Positions 900 through 10,492 of a stretch of DNA of 10,492 bases are shown here, piece after piece. This DNA is from Alphaproteobacteria bacterium (GTDB taxonomy: Bacteria; Pseudomonadota; Alphaproteobacteria; Rs-D84). How positions within the stretch are numbered: the first letter of the stretch is position 1; every line of letters begins with the position of its first letter. Location of the stretch: NCBI GenBank assembly GCA_031549365.1, contig JAVBPX010000009.1, forward strand, positions 1 through 10,492, in the 5' to 3' direction. Below the pieces are notes generated by a model. The model worked only from the letters and a program-made list of their open reading frames with translations, searched no databases and was not told where the DNA came from. The translations under genes were made by a program, and so were the position numbers.

Positions 900-3047
900 C
901 TATTGCATTGGTGGGAAGCAGGGGCCAGTTGGATCATTTGTTGGACAGCATGCGGATTCCGCAGGAGTCCATTCTTCGCCCGCACAACAACCGAATTGGT
1001 TTGGTGGGGTGCCGTCTTCGCACAGTGCGCCACCCGCGGATGCGCCGCCAAAATTCATTGATCCACCGCCAGATCCGCCAAAAATTTGTTTATCAATGTC
1101 AGGGGCCTTTTCCTTTTTTGCGTATGGGTCGATACCCGATTGCAATGCGGCAAGATCTGATGGTATGTATTTTTCCATTCCGGTGGCGAATGATTTGGCC
1201 ATGGATTCGTTTGTTGTTGCAGCGATTCCATTGACCATGGTCGAGCGAACCTGGCCGACATTATCGTTTTCGTTGATTTGTGCGGCAGCAATAGTACCAA
1301 AGTCGGCAGATGTAGTTTTGAGGTCGCCAAAAGCTTCGTCTGAGAAACGTACGATTAAATCGCGTGGTGAATATACAGTGATGCGAGTTCCTGCGGGTAC
1401 GATAAATGGTGGTGTTGTGTTGTCCATCATGTCGGTTACCAATTTTTGGGCGACGCGATTCCAGGATGAAATTATTTCCTGTTTCGCCAATTCAGAGCTG
1501 CGCATATTTCCGGATTGGGTTACAGTATTGTTATTTAAATCAATTTGGTTTACGAATTTATCCGAAATTGGTGCGATTAAATTGACTGCGGCTGGGACCA
1601 GCGATGTTATCATTGGCATGACGAATTCCTCCATATAATCGGTGGATCCACGGCCTGGGACGCCAATCCGCCCCTGGGCATCGGCCGAGAATGGTTGATT
1701 GCTGGGAAAATTAAATTCGGCTCCGTCTGGACGGACAAAACGATACCAATCAATTTGAATTTTTCCGATTGCCTTGTACCGGCCAGGCGCATTGTCTGTT
1801 ACGCGACCGAGCATTAAAGTTCCAGTTGGTATTACAATTGTGCGTTCGTTATCTGCGTATACGTTACGTTCAACCACGGCCTGGACCGGGAGTTTGTTTA
1901 TGGTTTGTGATTCAACACGGATGTCAGATACAATAACAGCAGGTATTGGTTTGAATTGACGCAGAACGTATTTATTGTTTTTTGGAAGAGATGAAACCTG
2001 GGCCCCGGATGTTATTGATATTGGAACAAATTCAGATTTTTCATGGTCGCCAGCACCAGGCAAGCGGTTTGCAGCAAATCCCTTTTTTTCAGGGTCGGTG
2101 TTTTTAGCGACGGCGGCTGCACGAGCCGCAACAATGGTCGCAAAATCAATGGATTGCTGTTGTGATTTTTTTCCATGTGTAGGAGAGTTCAATTGCGGCA
2201 TTAATGTTGATTCTGCGATTTTGCCGGAATTAACCCTTTCGGCGTCGGTTCCGATTTTTTGTGCGGGATTATCCAATGATGGAGAATAGATAAATCCAGT
2301 GTATGGATCGTATTCGCCCAGAGGTTTTTCGCATTTTGTATCCGCAAATCCATAATAATTATAATGGCCGGCGGCAGGAACAATCCAACCGTTTGGACGG
2401 CCAGATAAGTCGTATGAGCGAGATGCGAAGCGTAAACAATTTTCTTCGACAATTGTGGGTTCGGGTTGTTTTTTTGCTTCCTCGATTTTTGGTAATTCAG
2501 GGACAATGTTTTCGAACCAGGATGTATCAGTTTTTTCTGGTTTTAGTTCGGCAACCCGTTCACGGATGGTTGATAATGAAACAGTTATGCGTTCCCGTTG
2601 CTTTAAGCTGTCGGGACCGTTTTTTGGGCCGTAAGTAATTATAATCTGTGTTTCAAATTCCGTTGTGTATTTTGATGGAGCCCAAGACAAAGTAATGTTG
2701 CAATAGTTTAAGTTTGGTTCCAAGATACCCAAATCACGACATGTGTCCAATAATTTTAAATCGGGATCTGTTTGGGATAATGCGACGTCATAAATGCGGA
2801 CGCTGTTGCCAGATGTTATTTTAATGTCCGATTTTGTTGTGCGATTTAATTCAGCGTCATTGATTATAACGCGATCTGGATCCATTTTAATTTTAGGAGT
2901 TTGATCAACTGTAATCGCAACATTTGGGGTTTGTTTCGATGGCATTAATAAAATTACCACGAATATCGCAACGACAATAAAAGCCATGCCCAGCAAAATC
3001 CAATGCGTGTATTTTGGTAATGATGGTTTTTTTTGAGCGGTGGCCAT
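900..3047 (-). CDS. virB10: VirB10/TrbI-family T4SS core protein (715 aa) with N-terminal TM, extra periplasmic domain(s) and Cys-rich C-terminal extension
   Basis: TM at aa 16-35 and a Pro/Glu/Lys-rich linker. TrbI-type motifs at about 1345-1970: IPAVIVSDI, VQAVVERNVY, IVIPTGTLMLG, IDWYRFVRPDG, DAQGRIGVPG, PPFIVPAGTRITVYSPRDL. Lies directly downstream of virB9. Confidence 0.92.
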   Translation of the reverse strand: MATAQKKPSLPKYTHWILLGMAFIVVAIFVVILLMPSKQTPNVAITVDQTPKIKMDPDRVIINDAELNRTTKSDIKITSGNSVRIYDVALSQTDPDLKLLDTCRDLGILEPNLNYCNITLSWAPSKYTTEFETQIIITYGPKNGPDSLKQRERITVSLSTIRERVAELKPEKTDTSWFENIVPELPKIEEAKKQPEPTIVEENCLRFASRSYDLSGRPNGWIVPAAGHYNYYGFADTKCEKPLGEYDPYTGFIYSPSLDNPAQKIGTDAERVNSGKIAESTLMPQLNSPTHGKKSQQQSIDFATIVAARAAAVAKNTDPEKKGFAANRLPGAGDHEKSEFVPISITSGAQVSSLPKNNKYVLRQFKPIPAVIVSDIRVESQTINKLPVQAVVERNVYADNERTIVIPTGTLMLGRVTDNAPGRYKAIGKIQIDWYRFVRPDGAEFNFPSNQPFSADAQGRIGVPGRGSTDYMEEFVMPMITSLVPAAVNLIAPISDKFVNQIDLNNNTVTQSGNMRSSELAKQEIISSWNRVAQKLVTDMMDNTTPPFIVPAGTRITVYSPRDLIVRFSDEAFGDLKTTSADFGTIAAAQINENDNVGQVRSTMVNGIAATTNESMAKSFATGMEKYIPSDLAALQSGIDPYAKKEKAPDIDKQIFGGSGGGSMNFGGASAGGALCEDGTPPNQFGCCAGEEWTPAESACCPTNDPTGPCFPPMQ

Positions 3048-3067
3048 ATTTTAATTTCCTGAATTAA

Positions 3068-4531
3068 TTATTGGATGCGAACAACGTGGCACGAGGTACC
3101 TTGGAATTTTGTCAGTTGGTCGCAGAGCTTTTGAGCCTCGTCAATTGAGCCGATTGGGCCGACGCGTAAACGATATAGACGGCCGGTGGTTGATGCTGAG
3201 CCAAGTTCGCCGACGCCCTGTTCGTCAACGGCGAAGAATACGCGGTCGGAATATGGAGCCAATATGCCCTGGGCACCGTCTGTTGAATTAAATGTGGCCA
3301 GTAATTTTGTCCAGTAATCATTCAGAGATTTTACAGATGTATCAGATCCCAATTCAACAGCAACGCCAGTTTGGTTTGATGAAATAATTGGAATATCGCG
3401 CCCAGGCAAATATGATCCACGGGTTGAACGTGTGGATGACATTGGAGCGGTCGCCATGGCGGTTCCCAATGCGGATGTTTGCATTGTGCCAGGGTTTACC
3501 ATCATTGTTGTTTGTGGTGCGCCGTATGTTTGGCCCATTGGTTGGTTGTACATTGATGCCGGTTGTGAATAGATATTATTCAAAGATGCAGATTGTTCAA
3601 CGTTTGCAGATGCCAAGGCGTAAACAGATGCTGGGTCGGAAATCAAGAATGGCTTTTCACGTTTTTTGATGCAAACGATCCTTTGGCCAGAGCGTAATAC
3701 CAAGTCGCCAACAGATTCAACGACCAATAAACGGCCGTTTGGACCATCGGTTCTGAATCCCACCGGAGATTCCCCGCCTTCGATTAAAATGCTGACCACT
3801 GGGCGTTGAGTCATGGCGATAACCTTGTCCCCGAAATCAATGTATGTAAAGATTTTATCGCGCCATACACGTTCAGGTGCGATTACATAATCGTCTGGGT
3901 TTGGAACAAAGATGTCCAAGTCAAAACGGAATTCTGTTGGGTCAACCTTGATAGATTTAATCCAGCCGTAGTCTTCGTCGTCAAGTCCTGTGGATGTTTT
4001 TTTCCCGCCGAAAATTGAATTTAGGCCACCCGCGCCAGATGCGGTTGCGGTGGATGCCAAAGATGATACGGATGCATTCCCATCAATTAAAATGTCAACC
4101 ATTGAATGGGTGATTACATTTGTATTTGATGGTTCAGAGCGAAGATATAAAACATATTTGTTTCCAGATTTGCCCATGATAATTAAATTTGTGTCTGCGC
4201 CCTGGTTATCCTTGGCAGGCATGACCATTAATGTGTTGCGGTTGGTCCCCTGGGTTGTGATTTCGAAATATTCAGGACTGCCAACATAGGCGTCGGCAAT
4301 TTGTTCGCCATTTGGCATGTTGATAATGGTTATCATTCCATTGCGTAGTTTAACAGGTAAAATCGCGCCAGGCGCCCAAGTCAATTGTGCGTATCCAGGT
4401 TTTTTGCTGTCCGCCAACATATTGTTTTCAGGGTTATCCCAAGCATCCTGGACCCCATAATATTCGGCATTGGCCGTTGATGCCAAAAGCCCAAGCAATA
4501 TAAACATTGCGGAATAAAGACGTGTTTTCAT
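3068..4531 (-). CDS. virB9: VirB9/TrbG-family T4SS protein with C-terminal SPOR domain
   Basis: Start placed at ATG 4531 (AGGAAAGG RBS at 4539-4546) rather than 4555. Sec signal ending ANA. VirB9 motifs: TNLIIMGKSGNKYVLYL, IAPERVWRDKIFTYIDF, RPVV, LVLRSGQRIVCI. SPOR signature at 3068-3367: VELGS...W...LYRLRVGP...EAQKLCDQL...CHVV. Confidence 0.92.
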   Translation of the reverse strand: MKTRLYSAMFILLGLLASTANAEYYGVQDAWDNPENNMLADSKKPGYAQLTWAPGAILPVKLRNGMITIINMPNGEQIADAYVGSPEYFEITTQGTNRNTLMVMPAKDNQGADTNLIIMGKSGNKYVLYLRSEPSNTNVITHSMVDILIDGNASVSSLASTATASGAGGLNSIFGGKKTSTGLDDEDYGWIKSIKVDPTEFRFDLDIFVPNPDDYVIAPERVWRDKIFTYIDFGDKVIAMTQRPVVSILIEGGESPVGFRTDGPNGRLLVVESVGDLVLRSGQRIVCIKKREKPFLISDPASVYALASANVEQSASLNNIYSQPASMYNQPMGQTYGAPQTTMMVNPGTMQTSALGTAMATAPMSSTRSTRGSYLPGRDIPIISSNQTGVAVELGSDTSVKSLNDYWTKLLATFNSTDGAQGILAPYSDRVFFAVDEQGVGELGSASTTGRLYRLRVGPIGSIDEAQKLCDQLTKFQGTSCHVVRIQ

Positions 4532-4544
4532 TTTTAAGCCTTTC

Positions 4545-5153
4545 CTATTTTTCATAATGGTATCCTGTTACGTAAATCCCAAGTGGATTATTCAGGCGTT
4601 CGCCCCATAAAGTATCCATCGGTGGAGTTATCGCGATTGTTATTTGAATTGTAAAATCTTTTTGATCACTTTGTCCAGTGTTATCAACATCAATTGCCCG
4701 GATTTTTACGGCCCAGGTATCAATGCTGCGCGGTTCGATATTCATAATTTCGATTGAACGGCGCAATCCCATTTCATTGTTGATCCCAATTTGATAAGTT
4801 GGAGTTTTTGTGAATTCAGAATAAACATTTTTTGTAGACATCATAGCAACAGGTCCATCCGGGTTCCAACGAGATCCCATTGTGGTTCGGTTTGCCGAGA
4901 TTTCTTCGCGGGCGGCGATGTATTGTTTTATGAAATTTTCTTTGAAGGTTTCCAAGTTATATTTATTTGGAAAATAGGACTGAATCAATACGCGTTGTGA
5001 ATCGGCAGGTGCCGTGCCCATGAAAAAAATTTGAGTTTTTGTTAATGGGTTCATCATGATAAATGTCCCGATTAATACCAACAGCGTTGTCAATGCGCCA
5101 GCGAACACAAATGTTAGCATTCGTGATGTGAATAGTGATTGTGTGTCGGTCAT
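4545..5153 (-). CDS. virB8: VirB8/TrbF-family protein (canonical-looking paralog 3, 202 aa)
   Basis: Single N-terminal TM. VirB8 motifs FIKQYIAARE, MSTKNVYSEF and C-terminal ERLNNPLGIYVTGY. Immediately upstream of virB9. Confidence 0.88.
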   Translation of the reverse strand: MTDTQSLFTSRMLTFVFAGALTTLLVLIGTFIMMNPLTKTQIFFMGTAPADSQRVLIQSYFPNKYNLETFKENFIKQYIAAREEISANRTTMGSRWNPDGPVAMMSTKNVYSEFTKTPTYQIGINNEMGLRRSIEIMNIEPRSIDTWAVKIRAIDVDNTGQSDQKDFTIQITIAITPPMDTLWGERLNNPLGIYVTGYHYEK

Positions 5154-5179
5154 TTTTCTCTCGCTTCCTTGTGATTTTC

Positions 5180-5209
5180 AGTCTAGCGCGTTTTTGTGTG
5201 TTATTGCAA
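5180..5209 (-). promoter_or_regulatory. Putative internal sigma70 promoter for virB8(3)-virB9-virB10
   Basis: Minus strand (C)TTGCAA-N18-TAGACT with GC just before the -10, in the only large (119-nt) gap of the T4SS cluster. Confidence 0.5.
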
Positions 5210-5272
5210 GTAAGTTTTTTTGATTTTGTATTGTTATTATTGATTTTAGAAGTGGTTTGTGATGAATCAAAA

Positions 5273-5917
5273 TTAATGGGATATTTCTTTGACGTCAAAT
5301 ACGCGGAAGTCAAAGATTAATGTTGGGTCTTCGCCATTTTGTAACAATTCTGATTCGTTCCAAAGACGGCCGTGATATTCCGCGCGGATAAATACGTTTT
5401 TGCGTTCAATTTTTGGCGTTGCTTGTATATCGTTTGGTTTGTCGAAAGTTGTTAGGCGGACTATGATTGAATAATAGTCATTTTTCTTTTCGATTTTTTC
5501 AATGTCGGCCAGGCGAAGAATGCCGCGATTCGACATTTCAAGCATTTCGGAAGCGACGGATTTTTGCCAGGTTTTAAATATTTCTGTGGCGGAGAAAACC
5601 TCGACCGAGAAATATTGCCCGGGACGATGCGATGCGTTTTTACGACGGTCCATTTCAGCAGAGTATGGAATAATTTCATAGTAATCGCGAACATAACGCT
5701 CAAGTAATGAATTGGTCAATGATTCGGTATTTATCATGTCCAGAGATATAGGTTTTTCCAGGCGTTGTTCCGAATAGGAATTTGTTTGAAAAATTTCAGG
5801 TTGTATTTTATGCTCGTCAGACATCATTTTTGATAGAATTTTTCCCGACATGCTGAGGCTCATCATCATGATGCAAATTAAAGTTAGGGCGCCGAAAATT
5901 GTAATTATGCGTTTCAT
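5273..5917 (-). CDS. Divergent VirB8-like membrane-anchored protein (paralog 2, 214 aa)
   Basis: N-terminal TM. LLERYVRDYYEI and FSATEIFKTW align with VirB8 helices. The C-terminal DPTLIFDFRVFDV sits where NPLGF.V..Y normally lies. ATGA overlap with the upstream gene. Fits by size and synteny. Confidence 0.7.
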   Translation of the reverse strand: MKRIITIFGALTLICIMMMSLSMSGKILSKMMSDEHKIQPEIFQTNSYSEQRLEKPISLDMINTESLTNSLLERYVRDYYEIIPYSAEMDRRKNASHRPGQYFSVEVFSATEIFKTWQKSVASEMLEMSNRGILRLADIEKIEKKNDYYSIIVRLTTFDKPNDIQATPKIERKNVFIRAEYHGRLWNESELLQNGEDPTLIFDFRVFDVKEISH

Positions 5918-6651
5918 TTCGTTGTTACCAAGGGATAGTAGTTAAATTCTGATACGTAAAATCCTGGGAATGGGATTGAATTTAAATCTTGGTCAATGCG
6001 GATATACATTACAACAGGGGTGCGTTTGCCGCGGGATTCAATTTCAACAGTTGCGCGCCACATAGTGCCGGATGATGAATCGGTGGATGGCTTTTTTAGC
6101 ATTGTTGCACGCAGGGTTCCGTCCACAATTTTTTGTGTTTCGCCAGAGGATGCCATTTTTTCATAAATTTTTAGTTCGTTTTTACGAAATTCTTGAAATA
6201 CGTTCGGATGTGATATGCAACACAAAGTGCAATCTGAGATTTTTGAATTTTGGCAGCTATCCCATTGGCATTGACACCAGTTTTTTGCGTTTGATGTCGA
6301 TATGTTTGAAATATAAAAATGTCGCGGAACGTATGACGCGATGGTGTATTCCATTGCGATTTGTTCCCAAGGCATAGTTTTGATTGGGTTTTTATAATCG
6401 GTTTCTGAAATTGCAACCCAATTTTGAGTTACTGGGTCTGTATATAACAAGTATGCGTGTAATCGTTCATTTTTTTGTGCCCACAGTAACCATCCGCACA
6501 TGATAATTATCAAAACGAACAATACAATAGAGCCAATGGCAAAGAAGCGCGAGAGTTCGATGTTTTTTGATTCTGGGAATGCTGGTGTATCAAAACGTTC
6601 AGGGTATGGGACGTTGGAAGGGGTGCGTTTCGATATGTGTTTGTTGGACAA
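5914..6651 (-). CDS. Divergent VirB8-like protein with Cys-rich insertion (paralog 1, 245 aa)
   Basis: TTG start 3 nt after the lipoprotein stop. TM at about aa 36-58, then AYLLYTDPVT, TIASYVPRHFYI, SHPNVFQEF and C-terminal PFPGFYVSEF. Insert CQCQWDSC...DCTLCC. Confidence 0.7.
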   Translation of the reverse strand: MSNKHISKRTPSNVPYPERFDTPAFPESKNIELSRFFAIGSIVLFVLIIIMCGWLLWAQKNERLHAYLLYTDPVTQNWVAISETDYKNPIKTMPWEQIAMEYTIASYVPRHFYISNISTSNAKNWCQCQWDSCQNSKISDCTLCCISHPNVFQEFRKNELKIYEKMASSGETQKIVDGTLRATMLKKPSTDSSSGTMWRATVEIESRGKRTPVVMYIRIDQDLNSIPFPGFYVSEFNYYPLVTTK

Positions 6652-6654
6652 GTA

Positions 6655-6801
6655 TTAGCCCCGGTAAATCATCATGCAAGCACAAGGTGATAATTTTAAT
6701 TCGTCGTTGTCGTAACCTGTGCCAACTGGGTCGCGATTGTAAACCTGGCCACAGCCTGCCAAGGCAAGTGCAAATAAAAATAATATTGCAAATTTTTTCA
6801 T
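6655..6801 (-). CDS. virB7: Small lipoprotein, VirB7-like (48 aa, absent from the ORF track)
   Basis: Manual translation: MKKFAILFLFALALAGCGQVYNRDPVGTGYDNDELKLSPCACMMIYRG*. Perfect lipobox LAGC (Cys17), AAGGGA RBS 8 nt upstream, and first position in the virB8-9-10 cluster. The virB7 name rests on size, lipobox and synteny. Confidence 0.82.
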   Translation of the reverse strand: MKKFAILFLFALALAGCGQVYNRDPVGTGYDNDELKLSPCACMMIYRG

Positions 6802-6843
6802 GATATTTATCCCTTTGTTCCCCCGATTATTCCCTGTATCAAG

Positions 6844-6873
6844 ATTATAGAAAAAATTTTAGTATTCGGTCAA
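6844..6873 (-). promoter_or_regulatory. Near-consensus sigma70 promoter of the T4SS core operon
   Basis: Minus strand (C)TTGACC-N18-TATAAT, 42 nt upstream of the lipoprotein ATG. Confidence 0.7.
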
Positions 6874-6879
6874 GAGTTT

Positions 6880-8502
6880 TTACCAGTCCATTGGGTATAT
6901 AGAATTTGATTTAGGTTTAAAGTCAATGAAGGCAGCGCGAGGAGGTTGGATTTGCCAGAATGGAATCAGAATTCCATCCATTAGAGCAATCCGACTGATC
7001 ATGTGCATTGCAGCGCCCAGATTAATTGTTGGATTGTTAAATGAATTGATAATGCGATCCACCGATTCATTGCGATAGTTTGCGTAATTTAAGCCGTAAT
7101 TATTTAATGCTGAATCTGTCCCGAAGTATAAATTTAATGCGTATTTCGGATTCGTTAAAATTGGCATAGTGGCAACAACCATATCGTAATCGTAATATTT
7201 TAAGCGTTCATTATAAGTGTAATCGCTGACGATATCCAATTGTGTTGGAATGCCAATTTCGTTTAGTGTTTTTACCATGTTGATTAATTGCTCTATTAAA
7301 ACAGTATCCGAATTAATTGTGTCAGGTGCCAAGATTTTTATTTGAGCAGTGTCCGCACCGCGCATGAATTTTTTTTCGTGGGTGTTGTAATTATATCCTG
7401 CGTTTTCAAGCGCCAATCGAAGTGGAAGCAAGGGTTGAATGGTATTCGTTGCACAATTTTCACTGAAAAAAGGGCAGGAGTCCGCAGGTACCCGAGTGTA
7501 TTCCATAGCAGATGGAGGTGAATAATTTCCAGAATAGATTTTTGGATTTATTTTGTCGGATAGGCCCAGAATTTCGATAACGTTGCGTTCTTCGGATGTC
7601 ATGAATCCATGATAATCGGATAGTAAGCAATTAAATCGAGTCGCGTCCATGCCTGCCAGTTTTTGGTTTGTTATTGGCAATGCCAATCCAATTTGAGTTC
7701 GAATTTCAAGGTTTTGGAACAAAGGTGTTTGAGTGTTTAGCCATAAACCAGATACCGGAGTTTTTGTTTCGGATAGATGTTTTATGTTGTTTTCGTCCGT
7801 CTTTAATTCGTGGTATGGGTCGTCGTATATAACATTAATTTTTTTAGAGTTAAACAATTTCCATAATTCGTCATACGGATGATTTTCAAATGCCAAGCTG
7901 TGCAGTTTAGATTTAGTGTCGACTTTAGTGTCGACAGGAGTTAGTAAAATTTTGGTGTCAGTTATTGATTCGATTTTATATGGGCCAGATGTTGTTTTTA
8001 AAAATTTTAGCGATGCGTATGTTTCGTTCTTGATTTCATTTTTTGGCAAAATTTGCATTGTTAAAAAAGTTAAAAGTTGGGATTCCGAAGTTTCAGATAT
8101 TGATGCTATTAATGTTTTATCATCGATTTTTTCAATTGATAGTATTGGTGATAATTCGGCAGTAAGAGTTAAGTCTGATTTATAAAAATTAAATGATGCG
8201 ATTATGTCGTCCGAAGTAATTGGTTCGCCGTTTGACCAAAATTTATCAAAGAGTTTGATTGTTAATTTGTTTTCGCGTTCAGATATTGAATATTCCCCCA
8301 GGTTTGATTGTAAATATTTTTGGTCGTTTATTCGGATTATTGGTTCGTATAATAAGTCTGAGATAGCGTATGGTAAAATAGGGGTTGGTTTTATTGTTGT
8401 GATTTTATTGGCCGTTCCGATTGTAATCGTTGCCCCAAAAGCGTTTGATACAATCAAGCAAAATGCAATGAATATAAAAATAAAACGGTCAAAGCGATCC
8501 AT
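6880..8502 (-). CDS. ABC transporter solute-binding protein, family 5 (divergent YejA/OppA/DppA-like)
   Basis: Signal peptide ending NAFG and GGGGGAG RBS. SBP_bac_5 motifs: WSNGEPITSDDIIASF, SGPYKI, WLNTQTPLFQNLEIR, LENAGY, LNEIGI, DYDMVV, NYANYRNESVDRII, LIPFW. Confidence 0.85.
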   Translation of the reverse strand: MDRFDRFIFIFIAFCLIVSNAFGATITIGTANKITTIKPTPILPYAISDLLYEPIIRINDQKYLQSNLGEYSISERENKLTIKLFDKFWSNGEPITSDDIIASFNFYKSDLTLTAELSPILSIEKIDDKTLIASISETSESQLLTFLTMQILPKNEIKNETYASLKFLKTTSGPYKIESITDTKILLTPVDTKVDTKSKLHSLAFENHPYDELWKLFNSKKINVIYDDPYHELKTDENNIKHLSETKTPVSGLWLNTQTPLFQNLEIRTQIGLALPITNQKLAGMDATRFNCLLSDYHGFMTSEERNVIEILGLSDKINPKIYSGNYSPPSAMEYTRVPADSCPFFSENCATNTIQPLLPLRLALENAGYNYNTHEKKFMRGADTAQIKILAPDTINSDTVLIEQLINMVKTLNEIGIPTQLDIVSDYTYNERLKYYDYDMVVATMPILTNPKYALNLYFGTDSALNNYGLNYANYRNESVDRIINSFNNPTINLGAAMHMISRIALMDGILIPFWQIQPPRAAFIDFKPKSNSIYPMDW

Positions 8503-8552: not shown

Positions 8553-8573
8553 TTAAAACATTTGAAAATGCGC

Positions 8574-8637
8574 TGATTGCCACGGAGCCTTGGCTCCACA
8601 ACGCAACCACGCAATCAAAGATTGCTGTTGAGTGGTG
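8574..8637. repeat. REP/RPE-like hairpin cluster downstream of the HIT gene
   Basis: Contains tgattgccacggagcc (shared with 786-801), hairpin GGAGCC-TT-GGCTCC (8584-8597) and hairpin GCAATC-AAA-GATTGC (8611-8625). gttgagtggtg (8627-8637) is the reverse complement of caccactcaac (66-76). Confidence 0.75.
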
Positions 8638-8644
8638 GGTAGAA

Positions 8645-9022
8645 TTATTTATTGGCGAGGAGGTGAGTGTGGAAGTGTGGAACTTCTTGGCCGCCGCCGG
8701 GGCCTGTGTTCACCAATATTTTAAAGCCTGGGTTTAATAATTCCAGTTTATCTGTCGTTTCGCGAACGCAGCGCCAGAAATCTGATTGTTCTTGGGAGGA
8801 TGCGTCGCGGGTAAAGTGATAGATGTTTACGTATGGGCCCTTTGGGATTATCAGTACATGTACGTCGGCGCGCGGATTAACATCATGGAATGCCAGGGAT
8901 TTTTCAGTTTCGTGGACGCGTTTGCATGGAATTTCATTGCGCAGTATTTTTGCAAATACATTATTTGGATCGTAATTACAGTTTGGACACTTTTCAGAGC
9001 AGCAGGTCATGATTATCACCAT
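8645..9022 (-). CDS. hinT: HIT-family nucleotide hydrolase (HinT/PKCI-1 type); start may be ATG 9010
   Basis: YDPNNVFAKILRNEIPC, LAFHDVNPRADVHVLIIPK, and NTGPGGGQEVPHFHTHLL with the H-x-H-x-H triad. Confidence 0.93.
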   Translation of the reverse strand: MVIIMTCCSEKCPNCNYDPNNVFAKILRNEIPCKRVHETEKSLAFHDVNPRADVHVLIIPKGPYVNIYHFTRDASSQEQSDFWRCVRETTDKLELLNPGFKILVNTGPGGGQEVPHFHTHLLANK

Positions 9023-9108: not shown

Positions 9109-9402
9109 TTATGATGGGGTGGATTTGTTTTTTGCTATTCGGATTACAAGGGCGCCGATACCACCCCATTGGGTTGGTGCAGTTGTAACAGATTGTATCC
9201 AGGGATAGTTTAAAGAATCGCACCAGGTTTTTACTGATTGGTTTATTATTCCTGAGCCACGGCCAGTTATTATTAGTGCGCGTGTTGTCCCGTTTTCGTG
9301 ACAGTTTCGAACAAAGCGGTCGAACAATATGAATGCCGAGTCCACTGTGTTATCATGGAGATCTAGTTTTGTTTCTGGGATTTTTTCTTTGAGGTGCGAC
9401 AT
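9109..9402 (-). CDS. Stand-alone Smr/MutS2 C-terminal domain protein (97 aa from ATG 9402)
   Basis: KLDLH..TVDSA, ALIITGRGSGII, W, APTQWGGIGALVIRI. The ATG at 9402 is preferred over the track's non-ATG start at 9462. Confidence 0.9.
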   Translation of the reverse strand: MSHLKEKIPETKLDLHDNTVDSAFILFDRFVRNCHENGTTRALIITGRGSGIINQSVKTWCDSLNYPWIQSVTTAPTQWGGIGALVIRIAKNKSTPS

Positions 9403-9409
9403 GTGATTG

Positions 9410-9438
9410 AATTTAACAATAAAATGTTTAGGTGTAAA
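9410..9438 (-). promoter_or_regulatory. Putative promoter of the Smr gene (possibly leaderless)
   Basis: TTTACA-N17-TAAATT with extended TG. The -10 ends 7 nt before the ATG and there is no Shine-Dalgarno. Confidence 0.4.
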
Positions 9439-9471
9439 GGGGAATCGTAATTCGAAAAACAATATTGTTGA

Positions 9472-9594
9472 GATTGATGCGTCACTGTGTGGCTAGCAAT
9501 GACAATATTACATTGCTGTCGCAATGGTTTTATTACTGGATCCTCTCGCTGTGCTTCCACCTTTGTTAAAACTATGGTGGACAGGCAGGATGAC
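9472..9594. repeat. Composite REP/RPE-like repeat between the HTH and Smr genes
   Basis: Same module order as 142-243 and 10184-10281: gattg...atgac, ttgctgtcgcaa, ttactggatcctctcgctg...ggatgac. Contains an extra hairpin TCCACC...GGTGGA (9556-9581). Confidence 0.82.
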
Positions 9595-9618: not shown

Positions 9619-10068
9619 TTAGGCGTTTTGAGGGAGCTTTTTGGAAAGGTTTTCCATAATTGCAAACACGTTATCACGTACAGAATCATTTGGTAATTTC
9701 CAAAACAAATTAATCAATTTTAATGATTCGTTACGTGTTAATGGATCATTTTCAGATGGCTCGGATACATGTAGACCGCGGCGTTTTGATTTTGTAGGTG
9801 AAAAATCATCCATGATTACTGTTTGATTGGGGAGCCCTTCGAAGAAGAAGGCCACAGGTGTTTTTAAGGCCATTCCAATTTGAAACAGGCGGGATGCTGA
9901 AATGCGGTTTACAGCAGTTTCGTATTTTTGGATTTGTTGGAATGTGATATCGCAGGCGGTTGCCAGTTCGTCCTGGGACATGCCGACCATATTACGGCGC
10001 AAGCGTAAGCGTTGGCCGACGTGGATGTCGACGGGGTCCGGAGTGAAGGTTGGTTCTGGTTTTGCCAT
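9619..10068 (-). CDS. XRE/Cro-CI family HTH transcriptional regulator (alphaproteobacterial type)
   Basis: PDPVDIHVGQRLRLRR..GMSQDELA..ITFQQIQKYE..NRISASRL..FFFEGL, and C-terminal ESLKLINLFWKLP..VRDNVF. AAAGGA RBS. Confidence 0.93.
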   Translation of the reverse strand: MAKPEPTFTPDPVDIHVGQRLRLRRNMVGMSQDELATACDITFQQIQKYETAVNRISASRLFQIGMALKTPVAFFFEGLPNQTVIMDDFSPTKSKRRGLHVSEPSENDPLTRNESLKLINLFWKLPNDSVRDNVFAIMENLSKKLPQNA

Positions 10069-10171: not shown

Positions 10172-10351
10172 TTTAATTGCAATGATTGCCACGGGGTTAT
10201 TGCTGCCGAGAGATGACAATAAAAAGTTGCTGTCGCAACGTTTGTTTTACTGGATCCTCTCGGCTGCGCGATCCGGATGACCAAGGGTTTGGGAGGGTTT
10301 TAATTGTGGTTATTGTTTTTATTTCCCCCTCTCTATAAAACATCATGATCA
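10172..10351. repeat. Composite REP/RPE-like repeat, continuing into the terminal repeat
   Basis: tttaattgcaatgattgccacgg...gatgac (10172-10217), followed by a near-identical match to 188-312. Confidence 0.9.
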
Positions 10352-10492
10352 AAGATCATATGTTTTATTATCTCTCCCCGGAGGGGCGAGATGGGTAGTG
10401 TTTTTATTTTCTCCCGCACCACTCAACCACGACAAATAATTGTCGGGTTTTAATTGCAATGATCCGTCTGCACGTTGTTTCGCCGAGATAAT
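10352..10492. repeat. Exact 141-bp terminal direct repeat, right copy
   Basis: Identical to 1-141. Confidence 0.97.

Follow-up and report, generated by a model that had tools for sequence, protein, structure and literature searches.

A VirB-type secretion core operon with a VirB9-SPOR fusion and three VirB8-fold proteins in the reduced genome of an Rs-D84 alphaproteobacterium

The rvh type IV secretion system (T4SS) of the Rickettsiales is characterized by duplicated VirB4, VirB8 and VirB9, a multicopy VirB6 and the lack of VirB5 (available part of PMC11077975). In Rickettsia typhi, the order of its genes is rvhB8-II, rvhB7, rvhB8-I, rvhB9, rvhB10 and rvhB11 (available part of PMC4676284). 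Here we describe a T4SS core operon from an alphaproteobacterium of the order Rs-D84. The window, meaning the whole stretch of DNA that was analyzed, is the entire 10,492-nucleotide (nt) contig C9 (JAVBPX010000009.1) of assembly GCA_031549365.1, a 911,163-bp genome in 15 contigs (completeness 97.6%, contamination 0.67%, G+C content 0.38-0.41). All real genes of the window are on the minus strand, and coordinates refer to the window unless another contig or locus is named. The operon probably encodes the envelope-spanning core scaffold of a P-type (VirB/D4-like) T4SS that is chromosomal, inherited vertically and not conjugative, and that delivers proteins into a partner cell. It is distinguished by a VirB9-SPOR fusion, three VirB8 copies, a domain-rich VirB10 and its status as a core feature of a widespread, little-studied gut lineage.

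The operon runs in the order 48-amino-acid (aa) lipoprotein, p245, p214, VirB8, VirB9-SPOR and VirB10, followed by the gene of a 146-aa exported protein. The junctions, in that gene order, are a 3-nt gap, a 4-nt overlap, a 119-nt gap, an 11-nt overlap, a 20-nt gap and an 11-nt gap. An earlier note on this DNA, made from the sequence alone, had described a tightly packed operon under a near-consensus promoter, in which subunits are duplicated or carry extra domains. The packing is as it described, with gaps of 3-20 nt or overlaps of 4-11 nt everywhere except at the one 119-nt gap, and the elaborated subunits proved to be three VirB8-fold proteins, the VirB9-SPOR fusion and a 715-aa VirB10. The promoter corresponds to a sigma-70-like match, TTGACC-18-TATAAT (6844-6873), in the 78-nt gap between the upstream solute-binding protein gene and the lipoprotein gene. 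It agrees with the consensus at 11 of 12 positions and is the best of 35 sites in the window (shuffled sequences averaged 26.4 sites), so that we call it a promoter-like site by consensus match.

The rest of the machine lies outside the window. VirB3 and VirB4 are on contig C15, where VirB4 is the 810-aa open reading frame (ORF) behind VirB3 (PF03135, 61.4 bits, cut-off 21). Contig C8 carries VirB11 (329-aa ORF, T2SSE, 77.7 bits) and VirD4 (716-aa ORF, T4SS-DNA_transf, 167 bits), about 5 kb apart with two AMP-binding enzyme genes between them. This agrees with the earlier note, which had seen no VirB4, VirB11, VirD4, VirB2, VirB5, VirB6 or relaxase in the window and had placed the remaining subunits elsewhere in the genome; Pfam on 11 window proteins and NCBIfam on 12 returned none of these families. 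VirB4 (PF03135), VirB9 (PF03524) and VirB10 have one Pfam match each in the genome, and the relatives have one full VirB4 gene per genome. None of the relaxase models PF03432, PF08751 and PF03389, the only relaxase families searched, matched the source genome, and PF03432 passed its cut-off in none of 61 family genomes, with two weak matches. Because VirD4 is present, no relaxase was found and the organism depends on a partner, we favor a machine that sends proteins into a partner cell.

A scan for polytopic proteins returned five tandem paralogues of 373-493 aa, without a Pfam family, on contig C10 (26866-33326, minus strand). Of 31 family genomes, 29 have all five copies and the other two have four. 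In the ESM Atlas, the named clusters closest to these proteins are CtnDOT_TraJ/TrbL, at a score of 0.90 and with 193 of 256 features in common; no PDB sequence matched the five paralogues. In relatives, three of five weak matches to the VirB6 model PF04610 fall inside array members (the best at 2.4e-5, 22.7 bits against a cut-off of 25.9). We refer to these proteins as VirB6-like candidates.

Several neighbors of the VirB3-VirB4 locus were also inspected. A secreted protein of about 205 aa without a Pfam family lies directly behind VirB4 in nine of nine loci; the source genome's own copy (209 aa; C15, locus L008, 12046-12675) has an HExxH motif. The source genome alone has, next to this gene, one for a 194-aa protein (L008, 12735-13319) in which a glutamine-deamidase domain was recognized (PF18626, E 6.5e-15); it is a possible secreted effector. 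Three other neighbors (fam6, fam8 and fam9) had been candidates for T4SS parts and were rejected, being the lipopolysaccharide genes DUF374, LpxK and LpxC.

The system shares with rvh its chromosomal location, its dispersal over several loci, the lack of a relaxase and its retention in a host-dependent reduced genome. In both, VirB8 is multiplied and a small gene in the VirB7 position stands beside the VirB8 genes upstream of VirB9-VirB10, and the five tandem VirB6-like candidates may parallel the multicopy VirB6 of rvh. The order found in other alphaproteobacterial families (below), B8-lipoprotein-B8-B9-B10, resembles that of R. typhi in the available part of PMC4676284. There are differences as well. 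VirB4 and VirB9 are single here but duplicated in rvh (available part of PMC11077975), VirB8 has three copies rather than two, a SPOR domain is fused to VirB9, additional conserved domains and a tail rich in Cys extend VirB10, and VirB11 and VirD4 are detached from VirB10. The VirB8 family profile is closer to the TrwG/VirB8 chains of the PDB (best 2.3e-7, Bartonella/R388 TrwG) than to R. typhi RvhB8 (6.7e-3). The host, a relative of Candidatus Enterousia, is assigned to the GTDB order Rs-D84 and not to the Rickettsiales (PMC12306168). Because VirB4 and VirB9 are single, we do not file the system under rvh: it is rvh-like, but not rvh in the strict sense. The comparison with rvh made in the earlier note thus holds for the multiplied VirB8, to which the five VirB6-like candidates may be added, but is incomplete, since VirB4 and VirB9 are single.

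Compared with the P-type VirB/VirD4 systems, including those of pKM101 and R388, homologues of VirB3, VirB4, VirB8, VirB9, VirB10, VirB11 and VirD4 are all present, the order B7-B8-B9-B10 is kept, and structural matches to R388, Brucella and Agrobacterium proteins cover the VirB9 N-terminal domain and the VirB8 fold. Unlike those systems, this one lies off mobile elements, has no relaxase and has a SPOR fusion and extra VirB8 copies; no VirB2 or (by Pfam) VirB6 is detectable, and VirB1 and VirB5 were not searched for. The sequences are also strongly divergent; for instance, VirB9 matches PDB sequences only at E 0.5. With no relaxase by three models, a core rather than patchy distribution and housekeeping flanks, it is not a T4SS of a conjugative plasmid or of an ICE (integrative and conjugative element). 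The Cag system of Helicobacter pylori has in CagY a giant VirB10. Here too VirB10 is enlarged well beyond the TrbI barrel, and it reaches 1141-2468 aa in outgroup families, but the window copy has only 715 aa and no Cag-specific components were seen.

To assess how far the system is conserved, we examined the best 80 of 195 species genomes encoding close VirB9 relatives, whose VirB9 is 55-64% identical to the window copy. These 80 are metagenome-assembled genomes (MAGs) labelled Candidatus Enterousia, Alphaproteobacteria bacterium or Rickettsiales bacterium, plus a few evident mislabels. The relatives come from rumen, colon, faeces and termite guts; their genomes range from 0.7 to 1.0 Mb, and two are closed (716,531 and 958,618 bp). 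VirB8, VirB9 and VirB10 are adjacent in 79 of the 80 loci. VirD4 was found in 121 of 121 family genomes, VirB11 in 30 of 31 and VirB4 in 29 of 31 (21 of 21 high-quality ones), and a p214 profile matched 174 of 201. By genus, p214, VirD4 and VirB11 are present in 18 of 18 and VirB4 in 17 of 18. The proposal in the earlier note of a domesticated, non-conjugative T4SS is supported by this core distribution across the family and by the negative outcome of the relaxase models applied.

Rs-D84 bacteria, whose genomes are smaller than 1 Mb, are common gut inhabitants of ruminants, horses, birds, mice, humans and termites. Synthesis of amino acids, nucleotides and lipids is missing from these genomes, glycolysis is incomplete, and the bacteria have been proposed to live in dependence on a partner (PMC12306168). 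Because most biosynthesis is absent, the organism would need a partner. The same paper, which describes the genomes, names no secretion system and no machinery for partner dependence, and no published mention of a T4SS was found in the literature on Enterousia or Rs-D84, mostly at the level of titles and abstract openings. A core-genome T4SS with a coupling protein and without a relaxase is the obvious candidate for this machinery, and it turns the question of who the partner is and what is exchanged into a testable one.

VirB9 (495 aa; 3068-4555) combines a CagX/VirB9 domain (E 2.4e-21) with a C-terminal SPOR domain (E 3.8e-7; PF05036, 30.8 bits, cut-off 21) at residues ~395-495 (nt ~3071-3373), behind a low-complexity linker of about 90 residues. 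In the structural model, the N-terminal sandwich is confident, residues 300-390 are disordered, and residues 397-494 form a confident beta-alpha-beta-beta-alpha-beta unit. The VirB9 C-terminal domain is poorly predicted, as may be expected of a domain modelled without its partners. Foldseek matched the model to Xanthomonas citri VirB9 (best, E 6e-12), to DotH and to the N-terminal domain of R388 TrwF (TM-score to target 0.78-0.84), and the C-terminal unit to the SPOR domain of RlpA (6i09_A, TM-score to target 0.74). The Pfam score and the RlpA-like modelled fold bear out the fusion that the earlier note had read from the sequence. SPOR proteins bind peptide-stripped glycan strands at division sites. 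The last ~100 residues of VirB9 share the Pfam domain with RlpA, FtsN, DamX and DedD and are modelled with the fold of the RlpA domain; the domain sits on division and cell-wall proteins there, whereas here it sits on a secretion-system core subunit.

All 48 sequences of the VirB9 alignment, some of them only 30-48% identical, keep the SPOR-like tail as an aligned, conserved part. SPOR was detected (E <= 0.01) in 5 of 23 more distant VirB9 representatives, and at least five other alphaproteobacterial families have homologues that match over the full length, tail included. Within the library searched, no paper pairs "VirB9" with "SPOR domain", and we found no VirB9-SPOR fusion in print. A D-Ala-D-Ala carboxypeptidase gene beside VirB3-VirB4 (C15, L008, 7645-8817, minus strand) also carries SPOR (E 1e-4); the organism thus uses this domain on a wall enzyme too.

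The earlier note had also proposed three VirB8-like proteins, and these were established by different routes. The canonical VirB8 (202 aa; 4545-5153) is the sole PF04335 match in the genome (E 2e-14). The window copies of the other two, p214 (214 aa; 5273-5917) and p245 (245 aa; 5914-6651), match no Pfam or NCBIfam family. p214 has an N-terminal transmembrane anchor. Its AlphaFold2 model (pLDDT, the predicted local distance difference test, 89.9) was compared with the PDB by Foldseek. At E <= 0.001 this gave 25 matches, every one of them to a relative of VirB8: the VirB8 of Bartonella, Brucella and Agrobacterium, TrwG of R388, RvhB8 of R. typhi, CagV and TraE. The TM-score to target is 0.65-0.75 for soluble-domain chains and 0.43-0.54 for full-length R388 chains. 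p245 is a bitopic protein with a transmembrane segment near residues 36-57 and a Cys-rich insertion. Among its orthologues, 32 of 39 match PF04335 at E <= 0.01 (best 4.7e-10), the window copy not being one of them; for p214 the figure is 3 of 39.

Profile comparison with hhalign, using 39-sequence alignments, linked the p214 family to the p245 family (probability 96.7, E 3.3e-10) and to the VirB8 family (probability 80, E 1.3e-5), and p245 to VirB8 with a probability of 51. Two-sequence profiles gave no useful signal. Taken together, these results show that p245 and p214 are VirB8 paralogues. The p245 family matched no PDB sequence. A word-index search found no homologues of p214 or p245, which reflects a limit of sensitivity, because profile searches later matched p214 in the 174 genomes mentioned above.

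VirB10 (715 aa; 900-3047) has an N-terminal transmembrane segment, a TrbI/VirB10 domain at residues 368-564 (nt 1356-1946, E 1.2e-16) and a conserved Cys-rich tail (676-715). Across 78 family sequences, further conserved periplasmic blocks lie at residues ~45-175 and 200-275, so that the "extended VirB10" of the earlier note is indeed extended beyond the TrbI barrel. The window copy is the shortest full-length one, the family range being 754-858 aa. A weak lead from the ESM Atlas (score 0.75) connects the N-terminal region with TrbI proteins, 20% of which have an immunoglobulin-like domain. In the closest relative, L014 (= G003), the terminal Cys-rich motif is on a separate 111-aa ORF with its own signal peptide (11759-12094), because of either a split gene or an assembly error.

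Downstream of VirB10, the window holds the gene of the 146-aa exported protein (448-888), an ORF with only a sub-threshold Pfam match, which is probably co-transcribed with VirB10. Among the relatives' loci inspected, only L014 has a homologue at the same position. Most relatives have instead two conserved soluble ORFs (~115 and ~113 aa, no Pfam family) 200-330 nt downstream of VirB10, preceding yidC on the other strand; these two ORFs are absent at that position in the window.

The 48-aa lipoprotein (6655-6801) has a lipobox, L-A-G-C, and a mature form of 32 residues with an invariant S-P-C-A-C motif; it is 65-86% identical across the family. VirB9 Cys295, near the end of the VirB9 C-terminal domain, is invariant in the alignment. 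A disulfide between VirB7 and VirB9 is known from Agrobacterium. By analogy, the invariant C-x-C of the lipoprotein and Cys295 could form a disulfide of this type. A complex prediction with the mature lipoprotein and VirB9 residues 190-305 scored 0.04 against a mark of 0.32, which carries no weight either way.

The genes of the lipoprotein, p245 and p214 form a module. The three genes are side by side in 27 of 28 further loci returned, the 28th being a cut contig. Among the loci examined, the module is directly upstream of VirB8 only in the window and in L014, and in none of 17 other genomes inspected is it near VirB8-VirB9-VirB10 (~7 kb on each side). In one of these (L124), scanned with Pfam, it lies between uppS-cdsA-rseP-bamA and genes for a secreted ~285-aa protein and YraN, and most of the other 16 module loci have ORFs of matching size and order. 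The architecture that the earlier note expected to be conserved in relatives is thus conserved as a parts list (VirB8-VirB9-VirB10 and p214, in the counts given above) but not as the exact six-gene operon, which is found only in the window and L014.

The secreted protein behind the module is present in most relatives (L122-L138; for instance L124, 7659-8516) at ~260-297 aa, and its copies are 45-64% identical. It has an acidic N-terminus and a C-terminal K-P-Y-A-F motif and belongs to no Pfam family. The copy of the source genome (C15, 28862-29680) is unlinked from the module.

To place the joined arrangement, we used an outgroup of 12 loci from 11 other alphaproteobacterial families with genomes of 0.9-2.5 Mb. 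A hidden Markov model of the lipoprotein matched in all 12 loci, between or beside VirB8 genes and just upstream of VirB8-VirB9, and in 9 of the 12 a second VirB8-like gene precedes the lipoprotein. Behind VirB9 is a VirB10 of 1141-2468 aa in 9 of 12 (L160-L163 and L167-L171), and VirB11 follows VirB10 in 3 of 12. In a tree of 93 VirB9 sequences, the window and L014 fall outside the clade of the other 79 family sequences, with 95 in the Shimodaira-Hasegawa-like approximate likelihood-ratio test (SH-aLRT), and adjoin the outgroup branch. Both basal branches are long, which makes long-branch attraction possible, and this is a single-gene tree rather than a species tree. Because the window and L014 are basal on this tree and the outgroups carry B8-lipoprotein-B8-B9-giant B10, the state in which the module is joined to VirB8-VirB9-VirB10 is probably ancestral and probably split once. 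The layout B8-B7-B8-B9-B10, which like the multiplication of VirB6 was thought typical of the Rickettsiales rvh, occurs in other small-genome Alphaproteobacteria, where VirB6 may be multiplied too. Features that we did not find in print are the VirB9-SPOR fusion, the three VirB8 copies and, in sister families, a VirB10 of up to about 2,470 aa.

A role for each part can be proposed from the R388 and pKM101 VirB/D4 systems. The lipoprotein, VirB9 and VirB10 would form the outer-membrane core complex. By analogy with other SPOR proteins, the domain on its long flexible linker may tie this complex to glycan strands without stem peptides, which would anchor it in the wall and perhaps place it at the poles or where the cell divides. 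A mixed periplasmic ring (the arches) above the inner-membrane complex could be made up of the three VirB8 paralogues. Energy supply, substrate recruitment and the driving of protein export into the partner cell would fall to VirB4, VirB11 and the coupling protein VirD4.

Several points weigh against a protein-delivering T4SS of this kind. No substrate or effector has been identified for it. The VirB6 model (PF04610) had no match in the source genome even at E <= 10, and as no VirB6 passes the Pfam threshold, the five tandem membrane proteins are a lead only. The VirB2 pilin model (PF04956) had no match at E <= 0.01 in this 97.6%-complete genome, although divergent short pilins are easily missed. 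Because the genome is a MAG in 15 contigs, such absences are provisional. The lipoprotein is called VirB7 by its position only: it was matched by lipoprotein signal models and by no VirB7 model. As for expression, one metatranscriptome library from an invertebrate gut (run X1) has contigs that agree at every position with nt 2775-4612 and 6435-6885, which shows that the organism was present in that sample. They are at best weak support for expression of the operon, since DNA carry-over in the library is possible; contigs of this kind cannot separate RNA from DNA, and one of them runs upstream of the promoter match. Window bins without contig cover in runs X1 and X2 carry no evidence of silence.

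The same T4SS may be aimed at bacteria, in contact-dependent killing or epibiotic parasitism of the Xanthomonas type, with the SPOR domain handling or holding the bacterial wall. We consider this unlikely, but it is the strongest of the alternatives. Structurally, the VirB9 model comes closest to the VirB9 of the X. citri killing system, a match that may reflect only the general VirB9 fold. In the Xanthomonas system VirB7 is large and bears an N0 domain, whereas the short mature lipoprotein here has no extra domain. No effector and immunity pair of the XVIPCD type was seen, though no search was aimed at them. The habitat is a dense bacterial community (PMC12306168), and because Rs-D84 MAGs also occur in flagellate-free higher termites, according to the available part of PMC11257099, these bacteria need not have a protist host. 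The layout nearest to that of the operon is nevertheless found in rvh, which is used on eukaryotic hosts.

The protein-delivery reading was also weighed against a machine for DNA uptake or release, ComB-like or like that of the gonococcal genetic island (GGI), which would feed a nucleotide-auxotrophic cell or serve gene exchange. The order Rs-D84 has no nucleotide synthesis (PMC12306168), and several homologues were named "ComB9 competence protein" by JGI annotators. Among PDB sequences, VirB10 is closest to H. pylori ComB10 (E 3.2e-5), and the NCBIfam ComB10 model matches it at 1.8e-12, but the NCBIfam VirB10 model scores better (4e-17). ComB systems operate without VirD4 and VirB11, which are core genes here, and no relaxase was found to support the release of DNA. 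We consider such a machine improbable.

More speculatively, and with a slightly smaller chance still, the SPOR domain of VirB9, hanging from its disordered linker of ~90 residues behind the C-terminal domain at the outer membrane, might be displayed on the cell surface instead of in the periplasm. It would take hold of denuded peptidoglycan where a Gram-positive partner bacterium forms its septa, so that an epibiotic parasite would use a core subunit of its secretion machine as adhesin. With the giant VirB10 of sister lineages included, a distinct "wall-gripping" class of T4SS would then extend across small-genome Alphaproteobacteria and share ancestry with rvh. A decaying, non-working remnant of a conjugative plasmid or ICE, which the scattered genes, the undetected pilin and VirB6 families and the contig ends identical over 141 nt might suggest, is very improbable, because the reading frames are all intact, the proteins are 55-84% identical across 18 genera, the genes are kept almost throughout a family whose members have lost most of their metabolism, the G+C content (0.413) is like that of the rest of the genome (0.38-0.41), and the identical ends are a repeat at most contig ends rather than a closed circle.

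The flanks are of the housekeeping type, as the earlier note had it. Upstream of the operon, Pfam identifies a family-5 solute-binding protein (SBP_bac_5, 6880-8502), a HIT protein (8645-9022), an Smr protein (9109-9462) and a helix-turn-helix (HTH) regulator (9619-10068). In L014 the HTH gene (5130-5525) is directly upstream of the lipoprotein gene, while in the window the Smr, HIT and SBP genes intervene. The regulator is a candidate for control of the T4SS core operon. Rfam and tRNA scans of the window gave no match.

Both ends of the contig, compared with other contig ends, consist of copies of a dispersed 100-260-nt repeat (1-446 and 10176-10492), with further copies in the window at 779-807, 8567-8595 and 9490-9548. 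An 83-aa ORF within it (53-304) is probably not a gene. Nucleotides 1-141 are identical to 10352-10492 because the repeat terminates the contig. A circular plasmid, which these identical ends might suggest, was rejected, since the same repeat ends contigs C3, C4, C5, C8, C10-C13 and C15 and also occurs inside C3, C8 and C13. The repeat family is intergenic, its copies are 85-100% identical, and it breaks the assembly; a family of this kind is unusual for such a small genome. One copy lies just downstream of VirD4 (C8, 61771-62037).

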